From: a virus | DNA length: 64,000 nt | IMG/VR virus record: IMGVR_UViG_3300020370_000002 | Location: 18,806-82,805 of that record | Direction: 5' to 3' (one strand) | Shown here: piece by piece, positions 34,312 through 59,213 of the stretch | How the letters are laid out: each line of letters opens with the position of its first letter | Position numbering within the stretch: the first letter of the stretch is position 1 | Notes under the pieces: generated by a model | Database searches by the model: none | What the model was told of the DNA's origin: nothing | The model's input: only the letters and a program-made list of their open reading frames with translations | Program-made: the position numbers and the translations under genes

Positions 34312-34385
34312 TGGCATACCCCCAGGGACTCGAACCCCGACTAACAGTTTTGGAGACTGTCGTGCTACCATTACACTAGGGATAT
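34312..34385 (-). tRNA. tRNA-Trp (CCA), 3' CCA encoded
   Basis: ATATCCC TAGTGTAATGGTAGCAC G ACAGT CTCCAAA ACTGT TAGT CGGGGTTCGAGTCCCTG GGGGTAT G CCA. Confidence 0.93.
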
Positions 34386-47670: not shown

Positions 47671-47676
47671 GTTTGT

Positions 47677-47705
47677 ATTATCTCACCATTTAGCGAGAAT
47701 GTCAA
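47677..47705 (-). promoter_or_regulatory. Sigma70-type promoter, leaderless start
   Basis: TTGACA-17-GATAAT-6 nt-ATG. Confidence 0.8.
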
Positions 47706-47802
47706 GCGTTATTTTCCATTTACTACAAGAAATATAAAACTTTTTTTCGTTTGCTGAAGCGTGTCCAGAACTATAAGTTTACTACATAGGCAAAAAAATT
47801 AT

Positions 47803-47831
47803 TTGACGTATGCCAAAAAGTGTGATAAAAT
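47803..47831 (+). promoter_or_regulatory. Sigma70-type promoter facing an ORF-free structured region
   Basis: TTGACG-17-TAAAAT with the same A-tract context as the other promoters. Confidence 0.7.
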
Positions 47832-47837
47832 ATATGA

Positions 47838-48250
47838 AAAATCGTAAGATGATTTGATCAATCGACTGTTTTTACAAACCTATGGTGATGAAAATATCTT
47901 GAAATATGTATGCGATTGGAGTGGAATCGGAATTAAGGGAGATTCCATCTCCAAACCCATAAAATTATTGAAGTGATATTGAATCGCCTACATACAAGCA
48001 ATCGTCAATTCGATTGTAATGATTTTCGATCACTTACTTATGACTTCGTAAATTACGATAACCCAATACGGGTTTTTAACCTACTAACGATGTAAGTGGA
48101 AATTCGCCTTAATTTTGCCAAAGTCGCGATGGGTCAAAAGAGATAAAGGACTTTGTGTAATTTTAAGGGATTATTCTTAGGCGATCAACCATCCGATAAG
48201 AATGAAAGGTATAGAGCATACACAGCAGATCGTTACTGCATAGATAAAAA
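47838..48250 (+). ncRNA. Candidate ~400-nt structured ncRNA (unknown family)
   Basis: No ORF of 60 aa or more on either strand; own promoter; many nested inverted repeats. Confidence 0.55.
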
Positions 48251-48256
48251 TTTTTT

Positions 48257-48493: not shown

Positions 48494-48572
48494 AAACTCC
48501 TCCCGCAGATAGCATTAAGACCGCAAGGATTGCCAACCCCGCTGCGACCATTAATTGTTCATAATCTTTCAT
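48486..48572 (-). CDS. 28-aa membrane peptide
   Basis: MKDYEQLMVAAGLAILAVLMLSAGGVFG; overlaps both neighbours. Confidence 0.45.
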   Translation of the reverse strand: MKDYEQLMVAAGLAILAVLMLSAGGVFG

Positions 48573-48883
48573 ATAAGTTCCTTAATTGAGGTTTCTAGCT
48601 TCTTTAGTGTTGCTTTCGGTGCTTTCTCCAAACCCAGTAGACTCTCCACTTCAATTCCAAGATCATCAGCGATATTTGAAACGATCTCCACTTTTGTAAC
48701 AGGTAGTTCTCCAGTCTTGGTCTTGTAGATTTCACGTCTGTATACTCCTTCTCTTGATAGCTTGCCGATTATTGACTTAATACTCTTACTCAGCTCTTTA
48801 GCTAAAGCTTCTACTGTTTCCCTATTCGGGTTGTTTTGATAGGCTTCAACTATGTGTTTTGTCTGTTCCTCATTGTAGTTCAT
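48569..48883 (-). CDS. T5 A2-like DNA-binding protein, copy 1
   Basis: NY..E......Y...PNRETV..LA......SII.KL...GVY...K..IV..I...LG.....L.KA. Confidence 0.65.
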   Translation of the reverse strand: MNYNEEQTKHIVEAYQNNPNRETVEALAKELSKSIKSIIGKLSREGVYRREIYKTKTGELPVTKVEIVSNIADDLGIEVESLLGLEKAPKATLKKLETSIKELI

Positions 48884-49280
48884 CCATTTTACCTTTCAAA
48901 AATTTTGTTAATGTATCCATAAACTGCTGAACTTCAGCCATTGGATTCTCACTCTTCTTGGCTAATTCTTCAGCAGGAGGCGCTTTATCTAGGGCTATAG
49001 AGATATCTCCCGTATCTCCATCACAGGTGGTTATTACTTGAGTACAGTATTCTAACATTCCTGCGGGGATATTTTCTGCCCCAATCGCAGCCGCATATTG
49101 CATTACAAGATCGTCATATCTAACCTGTAACTCTCCACATTCTTTTTCTAGCTCACGAGAAGCCACAAAGAGTTTTGTTAAATTTTCAAATCTATCTGTA
49201 ATCTGCGCTTGCAAATTATTTATTTCTGCTGCAATAGTTTCAACTTTCCTTTCGATTGGAAACTGTACTACATTGCTCAT
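48870..49280 (-). CDS. Coiled-coil hypothetical protein
   Basis: SNVVQFP start; coupled ORF. Confidence 0.6.
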   Translation of the reverse strand: MSNVVQFPIERKVETIAAEINNLQAQITDRFENLTKLFVASRELEKECGELQVRYDDLVMQYAAAIGAENIPAGMLEYCTQVITTCDGDTGDISIALDKAPPAEELAKKSENPMAEVQQFMDTLTKFLKGKMDELQ

Positions 49281-49425
49281 CTACTTCTCCCTGTATTTCT
49301 TTTACCCACATAGGTATAAATTTCCTGTCAGGATCTCTACTTAAGATCGGACAGGGTATAAACTCTGACTCTTTTCTATTAAAAACGGAGTCACGCACAA
49401 ATGGGTGCTTCGGTTTTCTTAACAT
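49240..49425 (-). CDS. Hypothetical protein
   Basis: First ORF after the promoter at 49457-49485. Confidence 0.4.
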   Translation of the reverse strand: MLRKPKHPFVRDSVFNRKESEFIPCPILSRDPDRKFIPMWVKEIQGEVDEQCSTVSNRKES

Positions 49426-49456
49426 AAAATTCTCACTTAAAATTTTGAATGTGTAT

Positions 49457-49485
49457 ATTATCTCACGAAATAGCACTTATGTCAA
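49457..49485 (-). promoter_or_regulatory. Sigma70-type promoter
   Basis: TTGACA-17-GATAAT. Confidence 0.8.
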
Positions 49486-49506
49486 GAACTATTTTCGTTC
49501 AGGCAT

Positions 49507-49540
49507 AAAAAAACCGCCGTTAGAGTGCACCAACGGCGGC
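49507..49540 (-). terminator. Intrinsic terminator
   Basis: GCCGCCGTT-GGTGCACTCT-AACGGCGGT followed by TTTTTT. Confidence 0.9.
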
Positions 49541-49858
49541 TGGGAGTGGTTTAAGTTATGTAGCTACTAGAGCCGTCCCGAGGCGTAAGCTCGACCATAA
49601 TTCTCTGGGGGTGTGGTACGAATCCCACCTGACACATTCCGTTCCGTCTGTCAGGCAACGCACCACAACTAGGAATACATGCACTCAGAGCTGTGGCTTT
49701 ATGGTGGGGGCTGCGGCGAGGCACCAGTTTTACCGCGATCTTTACTGTCTTATCACACTATCTAGCTGGGCATGACCCAAGAAGTATTGCGTCCCTGACT
49801 TCCCCCATAAACTGGAGGTCGATTGATTTGCGAGAGGTCGACCAACTCTCGGGTGCGT
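49507..49858 (-). ncRNA. Candidate ~350-nt pseudoknotted ncRNA (unknown family)
   Basis: GC-richer non-coding stretch between an A2-like stop codon and a terminator; H-type pseudoknot, long-range helix and several hairpins. Confidence 0.65.
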
Positions 49859-50176
49859 TTAGGATACTGCGTCAAGCAGAGTCTGTAGATCACCAAAGCC
49901 AGCTTTGTTTAGGCTGACAAACTCGACACCAAGTTTGGCTTCGATGTCGGCTACCAAATCAGCTTTTCTCACCTGAGGTGGACGCTTGGTAGGCTTAGGC
50001 TGGGCAACGTATACACCCAGAGCGGAGAGCTTAGCGATAACGCTTCGCTCGGTTTTCCCAAACTGAGCTGCAAGTGCATTGACAGTCTCACGGTTGGGGG
50101 ATTCCTCGTAAGAAGCTATCATAGTGTCGATAACGTCCTGAGGGTAATTACTTGATTTAACAGCAGTCATAGTCAT
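49859..50176 (-). CDS. T5 A2-like DNA-binding protein, copy 2
   Basis: PNRETVNALA...RSVIAKLSALGVY...RKADLVADIE..LG....SLNKA. Confidence 0.7.
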   Translation of the reverse strand: MTMTAVKSSNYPQDVIDTMIASYEESPNRETVNALAAQFGKTERSVIAKLSALGVYVAQPKPTKRPPQVRKADLVADIEAKLGVEFVSLNKAGFGDLQTLLDAVS

Positions 50177-50231
50177 ACTATTTGTTCCTCCGAATAATTT
50201 TTTTAATGTTTCTCTCAATTTCATAATACAT

Positions 50232-50260
50232 ATTATATTAGAATTTACCATTTGAGTCAA
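50232..50260 (-). promoter_or_regulatory. Sigma70-type promoter
   Basis: TTGACT-17-TATAAT. Confidence 0.8.
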
Positions 50261-50672
50261 GAACTTTTTTCCATTTCCTCATCATTTTTTTCTCCGCTTT
50301 TCGTGCTTCGACTTCCCACGGAGCAGTCCAATAGTCAGCACGCTTGTACTCTTTTCCTTTGAACTTGTCAACTTTTGTACCCATCTCTAGCTCTCCTCTT
50401 GCGAATTGCTTCACATGAGTCATTTCGTGAAAGATGGTTCTTATCATGCGGTAATCGTTGAATCGGCTATTGATACGAATTTCATAGCCCCATTCGTGCA
50501 TCCAAGAATCCCCGTAATAGTTATCCTTGAACTTCGTTAGTATAAGTTTTACTGGGTAATCCGCACACTCGTCTTGCAACTTATAATGTTTTATTGCAAA
50601 GTCTAGTGCTTTTACCGCAAGTTGCTGCCTTTCCCAAGTCCACCAACCTTTTTTGATTTTTATCTTATACAT
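50238..50672 (-). CDS. Zincin-like metallopeptidase
   Basis: TIFHEMTHVKQF...PWEVEA. Confidence 0.8.
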   Translation of the reverse strand: MYKIKIKKGWWTWERQQLAVKALDFAIKHYKLQDECADYPVKLILTKFKDNYYGDSWMHEWGYEIRINSRFNDYRMIRTIFHEMTHVKQFARGELEMGTKVDKFKGKEYKRADYWTAPWEVEARKAEKKMMRKWKKVLDSNGKF

Positions 50673-50695
50673 AGATTTCCTTAATTTATGGATAT

Positions 50696-50724
50696 ATTAT
50701 ACCAGCAATTACATCCATTGTCAA
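50696..50724 (-). promoter_or_regulatory. Sigma70-type promoter
   Basis: TTGACA-17-TATAAT. Confidence 0.8.
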
Positions 50725-50885
50725 ATGATTTTGCCCCTATTCGTGAAAAAAACATCAGCGAATTCCGGGGGGCCGCGCGCGGGGTCGGAAAGTCAAGTGT
50801 TTTTTGTGTAATTTGTGCAAATTTTGTGTAATTTTTGTCCCCGTTGCGGAGACTTGTGTAATTATAAAAAATTTGGTGCATTCGT

Positions 50886-51097
50886 GCAAAAAAGACTTGA
50901 CATGCGCACCCGTTGCGCGTATACTGGCGCCGGGCGGGTACTTAAAATCGTCGTCGTACTACTACTGGCGCAGGAGACTTGCTTAATTTGCATTAATTTG
51001 CACCATACCCGCAAAAAAGACTTGACTTTTGTACTCATCGGCCGCATACTGGCGCAAGCAACACCTTATACAGTCGTCGTCGTACTACTACTGGCGC
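50886..51097 (+). repeat. Two ~125-bp direct-repeat units, each a promoter plus a 24-bp motif
   Basis: GCAAAAAAGACTTGAC at 50886 and 51011; TTGAC(A/T)-17-(T/C)ATACT; TCGTCGTCGTACTACTACTGGCGC at 50948 and 51074; TACTGGCGC four times. Confidence 0.85.
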
Positions 51098-51141
51098 CCC
51101 CGCGCCAAAAATCTCAATAAATCAAGATTTTTTTCGCGGAA

Positions 51142-51157
51142 TGTTTCACGTGAAACC
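51142..51157. promoter_or_regulatory. parS-like ParB binding site
   Basis: TGTTTCACGTGAAACC, 15/16 match to the consensus TGTTTCACGTGAAACA. Confidence 0.65.
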
Positions 51158-51271
51158 ATTGTGAAGCGCAAGGGCTATGCAATAGCCAACGCTGGAGAAT
51201 ATCGCGGCAAGTGCCAGAGTGAGCAATCCCCAATATATAGAAATTGCGAGAGCAGAGATAAGATTTTTCAT
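51146..51271 (-). CDS. 41-aa membrane peptide
   Basis: MKNLISALAISIYWGLLTLALAAIFSSVGYCIALALHNGFT; ATGA-coupled. Confidence 0.6.
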   Translation of the reverse strand: MKNLISALAISIYWGLLTLALAAIFSSVGYCIALALHNGFT

Positions 51272-51375
51272 AGTGTATTATTCCAAAGGTAATAAATTGC
51301 AGTTGCCCATATAGCAACGTCAGTAATAATCGAATAAATGAAATATCCGAGAGCCATAATTTTTGCTAGTTTCAT
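51268..51375 (-). CDS. 35-aa membrane peptide
   Basis: MKLAKIMALGYFIYSIITDVAIWATAIYYLWNNTL; ATGA-coupled; paralog of 53112..53222. Confidence 0.65.
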   Translation of the reverse strand: MKLAKIMALGYFIYSIITDVAIWATAIYYLWNNTL

Positions 51376-52035: not shown

Positions 52036-52506
52036 TTATGCGTTCCTCGCGTTGTATGAAATAGGATTATAAACCCGAATACCCATAGATTGCAAGGCAT
52101 TTCGGACGTTTTCGGAATCATCAAACATAAAAGCATTATAGCGCATCCATGCCAGAGAAACCCCAAGATCACGCGCACATTGGCGAATCATGGATTGTTT
52201 GAGAATACCATCGGCAATAGTCGAGCCAATAGGCCGCGAGTATATAAACCGATAGCGTAGATTAGACCGCACCAGAAACGCAAGGTCTGCGTCACCAATA
52301 ACGCGAGCCGTCATAATGACAACATCATGCCGCGATTGGTCAATGGTTCGCCATGAATCCGCGAGAGGCAGAAGCGAATCTCTCGCGATTTTTTCGGGCG
52401 TGTTGTTGTCGATCCATGCCGACAGGTTGAGCGTACCATCTGCCAGAGTATTCTGCCTATGGCTTGAGTCGATGGTAGTCCCATCTAGATCAAAAATAAA
52501 GAGCAT
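52036..52506 (-). CDS. HAD-family phosphatase (PNKP-like; possible functional analogue of T5 dmp)
   Basis: FDLDGT, MTAR, K, MFDD. Confidence 0.85.
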   Translation of the reverse strand: MLFIFDLDGTTIDSSHRQNTLADGTLNLSAWIDNNTPEKIARDSLLPLADSWRTIDQSRHDVVIMTARVIGDADLAFLVRSNLRYRFIYSRPIGSTIADGILKQSMIRQCARDLGVSLAWMRYNAFMFDDSENVRNALQSMGIRVYNPISYNARNA

Positions 52507-52711
52507 AAAAATATCCTATAATGCCGAGTGAATTTAATATGATTAAGTTGTAGAGCTTACCAGAGGTTGCTTGTATAGTCAACAGCGCAAGCCCAACAAT
52601 CGCAAGAAATTTTCCTGCATTATAATCAATGATAAAGGGAGCCAAGCCCATGCAGATCGTACCGATCCACGCGAGCCATTCAACCAAAGCCTGACGGCTT
52701 TGAGCATCCAT
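52490..52711 (-). CDS. Small multi-pass membrane protein
   Basis: Three hydrophobic segments; coupled ORF. Confidence 0.65.
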   Translation of the reverse strand: MDAQSRQALVEWLAWIGTICMGLAPFIIDYNAGKFLAIVGLALLTIQATSGKLYNLIILNSLGIIGYFYALYF

Positions 52712-53001
52712 TATTGGATGCTCATTAGAAGGGCTGAGAGAGAGCGCATTGATGCGCCTTCTAGACCTTCAAGGCTTTCACCTTGCAAAGCCTTTTCGAT
52801 GGCTTGCACCATCTCGGCTTTGGTTGAGCGTGAGGCTTTCGCCTTTGGCTCTGCTTTTTTGTAAAGCCCAAGCATAACGGCTTTTGAAATGACAGAACGG
52901 ACGGGAAGCCCGAATTCTGCCGCGAGATCATCAGCGACAGAGCGCGTGATGGGTGAGCGATCGTCCATAATGGCGATCATTTTAGTAGTGTAGTTTGACA
53001 T
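52711..53001 (-). CDS. T5 A2-like DNA-binding protein, copy 3
   Basis: AAGGAGG RBS; SNY...LAAEFG...RSVISK...GLY.K...TKAEMVQAIE..L....LEGLEGA. Confidence 0.7.
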   Translation of the reverse strand: MSNYTTKMIAIMDDRSPITRSVADDLAAEFGLPVRSVISKAVMLGLYKKAEPKAKASRSTKAEMVQAIEKALQGESLEGLEGASMRSLSALLMSIQ

Positions 53002-53043
53002 ATGAGCCTCCTTAGGCGTGTCGGTTAATTTTAATATGCAAGC

Positions 53044-59135: not shown

Positions 59136-59188
59136 CTCGTTCATCCTTTAAGGACGGAAGTAAGGAGCACTTAGCCTGAAGGAACGCC
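59136..59188 (+). promoter_or_regulatory. Glutamine riboswitch (glnA motif / glutamine-I class)
   Basis: CGTTCA-TCCT TTA AGGA-CGGAAGTA-AGG...CCT-GAAG-GAACG: P1 CGTTC/GAACG, P2, E-loop and P3. Confidence 0.8.
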
Positions 59189-59213
59189 AGACACGGCTAA
59201 AAGGAGAGATACT

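Follow-up and report, generated by a model that had tools for sequence, protein, structure and literature searches.

Comparative evidence for a modular structured RNA behind an A2-like gene of uncultured marine phages

The species 1 and 2 RNAs of phage T4 are small, stable, structured RNAs encoded inside its tRNA cluster. GOLLD and ROOL are large phage-associated structured RNAs found near tRNA genes. Marine phages also encode two-piece tmRNAs (Rfam RF04321 and RF01850). The accessible text of PMC9004378 describes an OM43 phage, Melnitz, whose two-piece tmRNA has a glutamine riboswitch as its 3' part. T-loop platforms, such as those of the RNase P specificity domain and the T-box stem I, dock tRNA elbows, according to the available part of PMC4810234. 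On a larger scale, the accessible part of Fremin et al. 2023 (PMC10690425) reports 10,006 unnamed structured RNAs predicted in viral contigs.

The RNA described here lies in a 64-kb (64,000 nucleotide) stretch of viral DNA, called the window. The viral record from which it comes has 82.8 kb, carries terminal repeats and is rated complete. As an initial annotation of this DNA had proposed, the region runs on the minus strand from just after the stop codon of an A2-like gene (TAA, 49861-49859) to a strong terminator with a 12-bp stem (49541-49512), and all the sequence words quoted in that annotation were found at their minus-strand places. Segment 49512-49858 (minus strand) is the 3' untranslated part of the gene's transcription unit; about 347 nt between the stop codon and the terminator end hold no credible ORF. 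Comparison with relatives indicates that this segment is a genuine modular structured non-coding RNA of ~350 nt, consisting of three modules, M1, M2a and M3. Since the promoter and terminator flank the gene and the RNA, the unit is read as promoter, 105-codon gene, structured RNA and terminator.

50232-50260, minus strand: sigma-70-type promoter (TTGACT, 17 nt, TATAAT; 11 of 12 consensus matches) driving the A2-like gene and the RNA
49859-50176, minus strand: A2-like small gene, 105 aa, from the ORF list
49817-49851, minus strand: M1, an H-type pseudoknot, from compensatory variants behind the stop codons of related A2-like genes
49697-49814, minus strand: M2a, a conserved three-way-junction domain of 118 nt, from covariance model R1 and alignment A1
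49545-49700, minus strand: M3, the 3' module, from BLASTN identity and compensatory changes
49512-49541, minus strand: intrinsic terminator with a GC-rich stem, a 6-nt loop and a T run, from a terminator scan

A consensus scan found no other strong minus-strand promoter between 50260-50232 and the RNA. Past the terminator, a consensus promoter at 49485-49457 (minus strand) serves the next gene. The A2-like protein matched PHROG 1725, "DNA binding protein", weakly (E 3.6e-5, PHROG scan) and no Pfam family, and it has 282 relatives among metagenome contigs. For the neighbouring proteins Pfam and PHROGs gave no informative family.

Twenty public sequencing runs contain the stretch, six of them RNA libraries, and four RNA runs from three studies were compared with 49300-50300. 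One RNA-library contig of 556 nt, 100% identical to the window, spans 49545-50100 and crosses the A2-like stop codon; a second, from the same sample, spans 49582-50087. The other two studies gave pieces inside 49575-50048. They also gave contigs from relatives, in which either M2a alone is shared or an alternative middle module is present. The contigs end at 49545-49584, just short of the terminator. Cover below 49545 or above 50100 was absent from the four runs, and missing cover carries no weight. Such contigs fix neither the strand nor the ends of the RNA nor its transcription, DNA carry-over being possible.

The fold of M2a was derived from a structure-blind MAFFT alignment of 33 sequences (A1), combined with RNAalifold and explicit pair counts. 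In the window its elements are as follows.

49802-49806 with 49706-49710, minus strand: helix P1 (A1)
49797-49799 with 49747-49749, minus strand: helix P1a, GUC/GAC (A1)
49754-49791, minus strand: variable arm P2
49733-49736 with 49713-49716, minus strand: helix P3 (A1)
49728-49732, minus strand: T-loop-like UAAAA
49793-49795 with 49719-49721, minus strand: tertiary helix, GGG/CCU (A1)

Covariation among homologues, a check suggested in the initial annotation, was found. In A1, 98.1% of 594 cells are paired and both-sided (compensatory) changes occur in 13 of the 18 pairs. The observed values were reached by 0 of 500 shuffles, and sliding the partners by 1-3 columns left 27-50% paired. The window M2a shows all five elements of the family: P1, P1a, the internal loop, P3 with its URAAA, and the tertiary helix. 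P1 is 4 to 10 bp long among the members and in most of them closes the 5' end of the RNA; the previously proposed helix UUUAUGG/CCAUAAA is real and with GGGGG/CCCCC makes up P1. P1a is a nested 3-bp helix, GYC/GRC, whose middle pair is C-G in 23 sequences and U-A in 10. Together with an internal loop, AGGGA/AUAA, and the variable hairpin P2, it forms one arm. P2 has three modelled basal pairs, of which C24-G79 is invariant and the next two are compensated, and a length-variable apical part; the proposed hairpin UGGG/CCCA is its tip, replaced by UAGG/CCUA in one relative (L003).

The junction AGUAAAGAU lies between P2 and P3. P3 consists of 4 bp, all of them (4/4) compensatory, and is capped by a T-loop-like URAAA followed by the junction AG; most members have a second UAAAG in the junction adjoining P3. 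In the tertiary helix, G-R-G of the internal loop pairs with C-Y-Y of the P3 loop. This helix also covaries: GGG goes with CCY and GAG with CUY, the middle pair being G-C in 28 sequences and A-U in 5. At one tertiary position there are 13 G-U pairs, which would be A-C on the opposite strand, and this fixes the transcribed strand. About 30 junction positions are invariant or near-invariant, a list that is inflated because selection of the first members required an exact 16-mer. Of a second pseudoknot postulated earlier, GCGG/CCGC stands as P3, and its other half, UGGUG/CACCA, finds no support, being absent from L248 and most members. The postulated hairpin GAAGU/ACUUC finds none either, GAAG(Y) being junction plus P1a and ACUUC lying in the variable arm and missing from L248. 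The P1a and tertiary contacts had been missed. The structural and family claims for M2a are held with high confidence.

The helices of the other two modules are listed below.

49846-49851 with 49831-49836, minus strand: M1 stem 1
49838-49843 with 49817-49822, minus strand: M1 stem 2
49689-49696 with 49663-49670, minus strand: M3 hairpin H1, compensated in relatives
49649-49655 with 49628-49634, minus strand: M3 hairpin H2, compensated in relatives

M1 always begins 4-19 nt past the stop codon and has an A-rich third loop, CAAAUCAA. Its pseudoknot had been recognized in the initial annotation as CGAGAG/CUCUCG with GGUCGA/UCGACC. It comes in three sequence types: GGUCGA/UCGACC; GGCCGU/ACGGCC or AGCCGU/ACGGCU; and GGGGAC/GUCCCC or GGGGC/GCCCC. 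An alignment of 17 sequences, drawn from the first two types, has stem 2 paired at 98% and compensatory changes in 3 of its 6 pairs, for example to GGCCGU/ACGGCC. Stem 1 comes out at 85%, an effect of the 2-column offset between the two types in the alignment. Stop-codon read-through or frameshifting driven by M1 was considered and rejected, as the spacer length and the post-stop frame vary among close relatives.

M3 retains 69-75% identity in L255 and L248, where the terminator stem is also compensated. The H2 loop (49635-49648, minus strand) is a conserved 14-nt sequence, GACGGAACGGAAUG, whose motif (GACGGAACNGAAWG) is exact in 10 related loci, some of which have an otherwise different 3' module. 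A search of the window for seed targets of this loop gave 4 matches with up to 3 mismatches vs 2.8 expected, one of the four being the site itself, and so yielded no target. The conserved 3' part of M3 contains CAGAGAAUUAUGGUCGAGCUUA, and the remaining predicted helices never vary among the relatives compared. The proposed pairings CCACAGCU/AGUUGUGG and CCUGACA/UGUCAGG are compensated in relatives. Two others found no support: GAGC/GCUC is broken in L236, and for the long-range helix ACGCACC/GGUGCGU, relatives with 5' UCACC or GGAACC keep GGUGCGU unchanged.

Loci for comparison were gathered through the A2-like protein, 43 from viral contigs and 80 kept out of the 282 from metagenome contigs. 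BLASTN of the 361-nt region against the A2-like loci gave a mosaic pattern: query positions 1-53 (M1) are common to many relatives, 43-158 (M2a) to a second set and 158-360 (M3 and the terminator) to a third. In L236, L237, L238, L240, L241, L250 and L254, M1 is 93-100% and M3 87-96% identical, and M2a is replaced by a different element of 75-160 nt; model R1 finds no domain in these loci at E up to 1. Conversely, in L244, L247, L249, L253 and L258 M2a is kept (92-96%) but the pseudoknot and the 3' module are different ones. Homology spans the full length in L248 (75% identity) and L255 (69%), and L235 has both middle elements. In L102, the slot after the A2-like gene is taken by a complete permuted tmRNA (tag ANDDVYQLAA), with the M2a domain directly after it. 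Other relatives have in this slot a tRNA-Tyr, or a tRNA-His and a tRNA-Asp. Such a cassette-like swap of M2a with a second module and with tRNAs, the flanks on both sides being identical, suggests an as yet undescribed toolbox of RNA modules.

The family was defined by sequence searches. In the 64-kb window, model R1 has a single match, 49697-49814 (minus strand), over the full model, with 85.1 bits and an E value of 1.3e-19. Two motifs common to the window, L002, L003 and L004 seeded an exact-pattern scan of viral contigs, which gave 37 distinct true members, 33 of which make up A1, plus many chance matches inside genes. A looser pattern scan of the viral contigs gave 70 stretches, 44 of them model-positive and 26 chance or coding matches. 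Of the metagenome loci 19/80 are R1-positive, including divergent members at 27-60 bits; the divergent members have no AGUAAAGAU linker, yet keep GAUAAGGC, GGUAAAAG and GCCYAA. Five related large records, of 72-101 kb, have exactly one copy each.

Among 185,579 prokaryote genomes, a scan for the exact pattern alone gave 0 matches. BLASTN of 50,697 phage records with the window region and two domain members gave no true match, the sole matches being 43-nt chance matches in T4-like baseplate genes, and TBLASTN with two neighbouring proteins gave no cultured relatives. Four 12-mers of the motif are absent from the relevant literature (6 unrelated primer matches were found). The M2a motif is also absent from the 6 searchable supplementary files of PMC10690425, and it may still be among the 10,006 candidates of that work.

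In an Rfam 15 gathering scan of the window (4227 families), a tRNA-Trp and a glutamine riboswitch (59136-59190) were the only matches. With E up to 10, region 49400-49950 gave two sub-threshold chance matches, STnc560 (15 bits vs a threshold of 55) and Prion_pknot (14 bits vs 39), and no tRNA-clan match. Rfam matched only the neighbouring tRNAs and tmRNAs in 47 related loci (17 + 20 + 10), including the 20 long-form loci, scanned at E up to 1. The Rfam models of RNase P, T-box, SRP, 6S, GOLLD, ROOL and the self-cleaving ribozymes had no match near threshold. ARAGORN called a tRNA-Trp at 34312-34385 alone in the window, with no tmRNA in it and neither a tmRNA nor a tRNA over the region, and made no call over M2a in 40 loci scanned. 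Thus the initial annotation's "novel phage ncRNA" is borne out: the RNA is structured and conserved, occurs in RNA libraries, and is matched neither by Rfam nor by ARAGORN. The searches indicate that M2a belongs to an RNA family, single-copy in uncultured marine phages, that lies outside all catalogued families; so far, the family is confined to uncultured marine phages with 70-100 kb genomes.

RNase P RNA had been suggested by GGAAGUCAGGGAC and ACAGUAAAG, which are reminiscent of conserved RNase P RNA regions. It was dropped, as there is no model match and AAGUC pairs locally with GAC, not with a distal strand. An interdigitated double T-loop was also considered and was weakened by two divergent members (L262 and L276) without the second UAAAG.

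M2a occurs in three settings in relatives: with a strong promoter right before it, behind a permuted tmRNA, or beside tRNAs. The 48 oriented matches in viral contigs contain 43 distinct domain sequences, for which the contexts were counted as given below; the promoter and terminator finders of the script are crude and many terminators were missed.

30 of 43: sigma-70-type promoter starting 33-56 nt ahead of the R1 match, placing the transcript start a few bases before P1
14 of 43: permuted tmRNA (ARAGORN) within 1.5 kb
9 of 43: tRNA nearby
26 of 43: first downstream RBS-bearing ORF encodes a conserved ~100-136-aa protein, M..(I/V)(I/L/V).F(P)
4 of 43: small membrane-protein ORF 9-18 nt after the domain
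2 of 43: short form, with a terminator at +39/+40 nt after the domain

The window has a counterpart of the conserved M..(I/V)(I/L/V).F(P) protein at 48870-49280. The small membrane-protein genes right after the domain fit a cis-acting leader and go against a trans role. The short forms carry a new promoter after the terminator, and the 3' arm of this terminator could alternatively pair with the P1 3' strand. In most members, 200-600 nt of further non-coding RNA follow M2a. The long forms are multi-domain RNAs of 400-700 nt with their own promoter and terminator, adjoining tRNA or tmRNA genes. Close junctions with tRNAs are also seen: in L118 a tRNA-Met begins a few bases past M2a, and in L246 a tRNA-Tyr with encoded CCA is inserted between M1 and M2a, ending a few bases before M2a.

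What might such modules do? Because relatives carry tRNAs, a permuted tmRNA or another module in the corresponding slot, the modules may be read as products of the tRNA type, and because M2a has its own consensus promoter in most relatives, sometimes with an immediate terminator, they may be read as separate RNAs. In the proposed mechanism, the modules would be separate stable RNAs or domains, made as tRNAs are made. M2a would be an abundant early RNA that is freed from a precursor of the tRNA type and acts in trans, binding some factor, of host or phage, that belongs to the machinery of tRNAs and translation. The message upstream would have its end shielded by M1. The trans reading rests on the promoter and terminator that short forms and other members have of their own and on the lack of a common downstream gene. 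A trans-acting binding role of M2a is the likeliest of the roles considered, though a tentative proposal, given somewhat less than an even chance. Taken as a whole, structure and family together with this role, the explanation is put, as a compromise, at evenly balanced.

As the main rival, M2a might be the aptamer of an undescribed riboswitch that, on binding a putative small molecule, controls a small downstream gene, a further RNA domain or a terminator in cis. The build is aptamer-like: the fold is conserved and covarying, with highly conserved junctions, varying helices and a loop-to-internal-loop tertiary helix. T-loops in other riboswitches hold planar ligands. M2a stands immediately after the transcription start in the 30 promoter-proximal members, four members have a small RBS-bearing ORF within 9-18 nt, and the two short forms offer a terminator arm that could switch its pairing to P1. 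There is also a precedent in the marine phage glutamine riboswitch that forms the 3' part of a two-piece tmRNA gene (accessible text of PMC9004378), and the window's own phage has a glutamine riboswitch at another place. However, a constant leader position before a functionally coherent set of genes, with an expression platform, was not found among the 43 sequences: an ORF comes directly after the domain in four, and in the others non-coding RNA, a tRNA or a terminator does. No downstream gene is common to the members. In the window, M2a is followed by 184 nt of conserved non-coding M3 before the terminator, and close relatives swap M2a for another module while the flanks are kept. Read-through control of the short forms would have little target because a new promoter comes next. 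A riboswitch is thus considered unlikely.

A further possibility is that the modules work in cis and do no more than protect ends or assist processing. On this view, M1 would shield the A2-like message from 3' exonucleases, and the RNA that comes after would have its 5' end tucked into P1 of M2a, out of reach of 5'-end-dependent decay. M2a might even self-cleave and so separate neighbouring RNAs. The start of M1 at 4-19 nt behind the stop codon in all three sequence types is as expected for such elements. So is the pairing of the first transcribed bases of promoter-proximal members into an extended P1. M2a also lies beside RNAs that need exact ends (the tRNA-Tyr of L246, the tRNA-Met of L118 and the tmRNA coding piece of L102), and a polynucleotide kinase homologue at 52036-52506 could conceivably repair ribozyme-made ends. 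Yet a simple hairpin would suffice for end protection, whereas the near-invariant junction positions and the tertiary helix of M2a point to a specific binding or catalytic site. As for processing, no self-cleaving ribozyme family of Rfam matched at E up to 1-10, and most members begin at a promoter, so that no 5' cleavage is needed. Protection or processing is accordingly improbable as the sole role.

The initial annotation had also offered a degenerate tmRNA-like decoy, in which the RNA would be a decayed tmRNA or would mimic part of one. This suspicion touches something real, in that L102 has a complete permuted tmRNA at this very position after its A2-like gene, and one lies within 1.5 kb in 14/43. 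Like tmRNA pseudoknots, that of M1 is of the H type and has an A-rich third loop, although this feature alone does not define the family. The topology of M2a may resemble the three-helix tRNA-like domain of tmRNA, with an end-closing helix, a GG strand paired with the loop of the T-loop hairpin, and an ACCA after P1 (49702-49705, minus strand). But the window RNA lacks an acceptor stem, a T arm, a piece ending in CCA and a tag frame, and ARAGORN, Rfam at E up to 10 and the two tmRNA models all speak against it. In the whole 82.8-kb genome RF01850 has no match and RF04321 only 8 bits, outside the window, where the tmRNA models reach 98-117 bits on relatives. Nor was a tRNA-like cloverleaf or minihelix with a 3' NCCA found: ACC(A) after P1 is missing in L004, L047, L055, L057, L133, L248 and L255, and the length of P1 is not constant. 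Of five large genomes with the domain, two also have a permuted tmRNA; the other three lack one, as does the window's complete genome. The M2a domain is independent of tmRNA. Its coexistence with a complete tmRNA in L102 and in these two genomes means that M2a is not the remnant of a tmRNA that it replaced. The tmRNA-remnant reading is largely refuted by these tests and is very unlikely.

The helices could also have arisen by chance, the region being no more than a lengthy 3' untranslated spacer or a small gene that went unrecognised. In favour of this, the single sequence folds with unremarkable energy (z = -1.6 on the minus strand vs -0.4 on the plus strand), so that the case rests on comparison, and ORFs of 42-57 aa can be drawn on paper. 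The comparative data nevertheless refute it: the covariation is far above controls, conservation extends across dozens of otherwise diverged contigs, RNA contig cover ends at the terminator, and the frame-breaking 1- and 2-nt indels between close relatives, with the free length variation of P2, indicate that the region is not coding. Whatever likelihood these readings leave belongs to something else.

New RNA folds this conserved, pseudoknotted and backed by covariation are rare, and in the past such folds were mostly riboswitches, ribozymes or parts of ribonucleoproteins. M2a is embedded in the tRNA/tmRNA locus, a part of phage genomes that matters for translation takeover and for escape from tRNA-targeting defences. 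M2a might be a new compact class of RNA receptor, used by lytic marine phages, that docks tRNA-shaped RNAs or their enzymes, or a riboswitch aptamer of unknown class; this broader idea is held loosely, as a rather doubtful possibility. If it is a receptor, M2a would be a T-loop platform for docking, used by the phage as a decoy or guide in the host tRNA/tmRNA machinery, for example against tRNA-cleaving defence nucleases. If it is an aptamer, it would be a cassette that phages place ahead of large non-coding RNAs, of tRNAs and of genes linked to tmRNA. On that view, the long forms, with their 400-700 nt, would make up a new class of large phage RNA of several domains, in which M2a serves as sensor or anchor. 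For biochemistry, the outcome offers a covariance model, exact coordinates and natural variants.

Like GOLLD and ROOL, the long forms of the family are large, multi-domain, equipped with their own promoter and terminator, and near tRNA or tmRNA genes; unlike them, the 20 long-form loci scanned match no Rfam family apart from the neighbouring tRNAs and tmRNAs, and the window version has only ~350 nt. The T4 species 1 and 2 RNAs share with M2a an unassigned function and co-transcription with tRNAs, from which they are presumably freed by tRNA-processing enzymes; the likeness is one of description, and BLAST against the phage records gave no true match. With the T-loop modules described in the available part of PMC4810234, M2a shares a P3 cap, GG-URAAA-G, of the T-loop-type pentanucleotide, a second UAAAG in most members and a family life among tRNA genes. 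It differs in having no match to the RNase P or T-box models, and L262 and L276 do without the second UAAAG. The apparent likeness of M2a to tRNA-docking T-loop platforms is a lead.

The two-piece tmRNAs of marine phages are similar in the slot that they share in L102, in lying beside the domain in 14/43, in being rich in pseudoknots and in being co-transcribed with tRNAs; the window RNA is different in having none of the tRNA-like parts or the tag frame. In Melnitz, as far as the accessible text of PMC9004378 goes, the glutamine riboswitch is unlike M2a in sequence and fold, and the Rfam glutamine model misses the M2a region. However, there too a compact aptamer-like domain lies directly 3' of a permuted tmRNA, as M2a does in L102. 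Within the accessible text, this tmRNA-riboswitch is the nearest published arrangement.

The slot directly behind the small A2-like gene is filled in relatives by tRNA-Tyr, or by tRNA-His and tRNA-Asp together. The tRNA-type occupants of the slot, in the coordinates of each related locus, are:

L246, 974-1057
L263, 1114-1197
L270, 1203-1286
L267, 1866-2024
L272, 1867-1942

The slot thus serves generally for the expression of tRNA-type RNAs. The same locus also carries further long, promoter-driven non-coding RNAs, which lie 100-900 nt behind the A2-like gene in L010-L017 and L019. These contain a repeated AGUAGUAAAUC and a conserved GAUUGAGCCGUAGAU...AUCUCGGGAGCGGAAUGCUC, and have no match to Rfam or to R1, the covariance model of the M2a family.

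Comparison of the related loci showed that a second structured module, M2b, can substitute for the conserved three-way-junction domain (M2a). It lies between the H-type pseudoknot behind the A2-like gene (M1) and the 3' module before the terminator (M3), with both flanks identical, in L236, L237, L238, L240, L241, L250, L254 and also L235 (for example L238:1283-1352). M2b is closed by a 7 bp helix, GAUCCAG/CUGGAUC, which in L240 reads AAUCCAG/CUGGAUU, and encloses a variable hairpin together with a conserved element, GGGGCGUGCAUCGCAUUGAAAAGAACGCGUAAGUCGAG. ACCA or ACCU follows 3' of M2b in some loci. Rfam and ARAGORN gave no match to M2b.

The A2-like gene itself is one of three small paralogous genes of A2-like or D5-like DNA-binding type that lie in the window within 4.5 kb, with weak matches to PHROG 1725 and 323:

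48569-48883, minus strand
49859-50176, minus strand
52711-53004, minus strand

Two gaps were also noted in the window. An ORF-poor gap of ~700 nt without a convincing gene (50673-51371) contains the direct repeats GCGCCAGUAGUAGUACGACGACGA and GUCAAGUCUUUUUUGC at 50860-51110 on the minus strand, with a consensus promoter at 50724-50696 downstream of the repeat stretch. The other, ~590 nt at 47671-48256, has no ORF of at least 55 aa on either strand and is flanked by genes of pyrophosphohydrolase-like and kinase-like type.

In other relatives the domain is part of longer RNAs. A conserved ~26-nt loop, ACGAAAAUURCUAnnAAUUGYUAYGG, is enclosed by a hairpin with covarying stems, which is found within the long RNAs of L047, L064, L066, L083 and L088 and just 5' of the domain in L071, L018 and L020. 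A 3' hairpin, GUGRAAGGUAGGnnnGUAnnCAC, is common to the long forms. Together with the 5' domain, the two hairpins may define a multi-domain phage RNA of 400-700 nt. In L088 and L101 the variable arm of the domain, P2, carries an insert in which a 17-nt unit, CAGUUUUGUACUUGAUA, stands in 3 or 4 tandem copies.

One segment is shared with a tmRNA. The ~125-nt intervening segment of the permuted tmRNA of L102, AAGGUCAGCUGCACG...GGUUCAUGGGCAUGACAAAGAACUCUAAGUCCCAGC (L102:1008-1130, minus strand), is found again at L018:3520-3650 and L020:3520-3640. No tRNA-like piece was detected at the segment in L018 and L020, where it lies directly 3' of a divergent copy of the domain.
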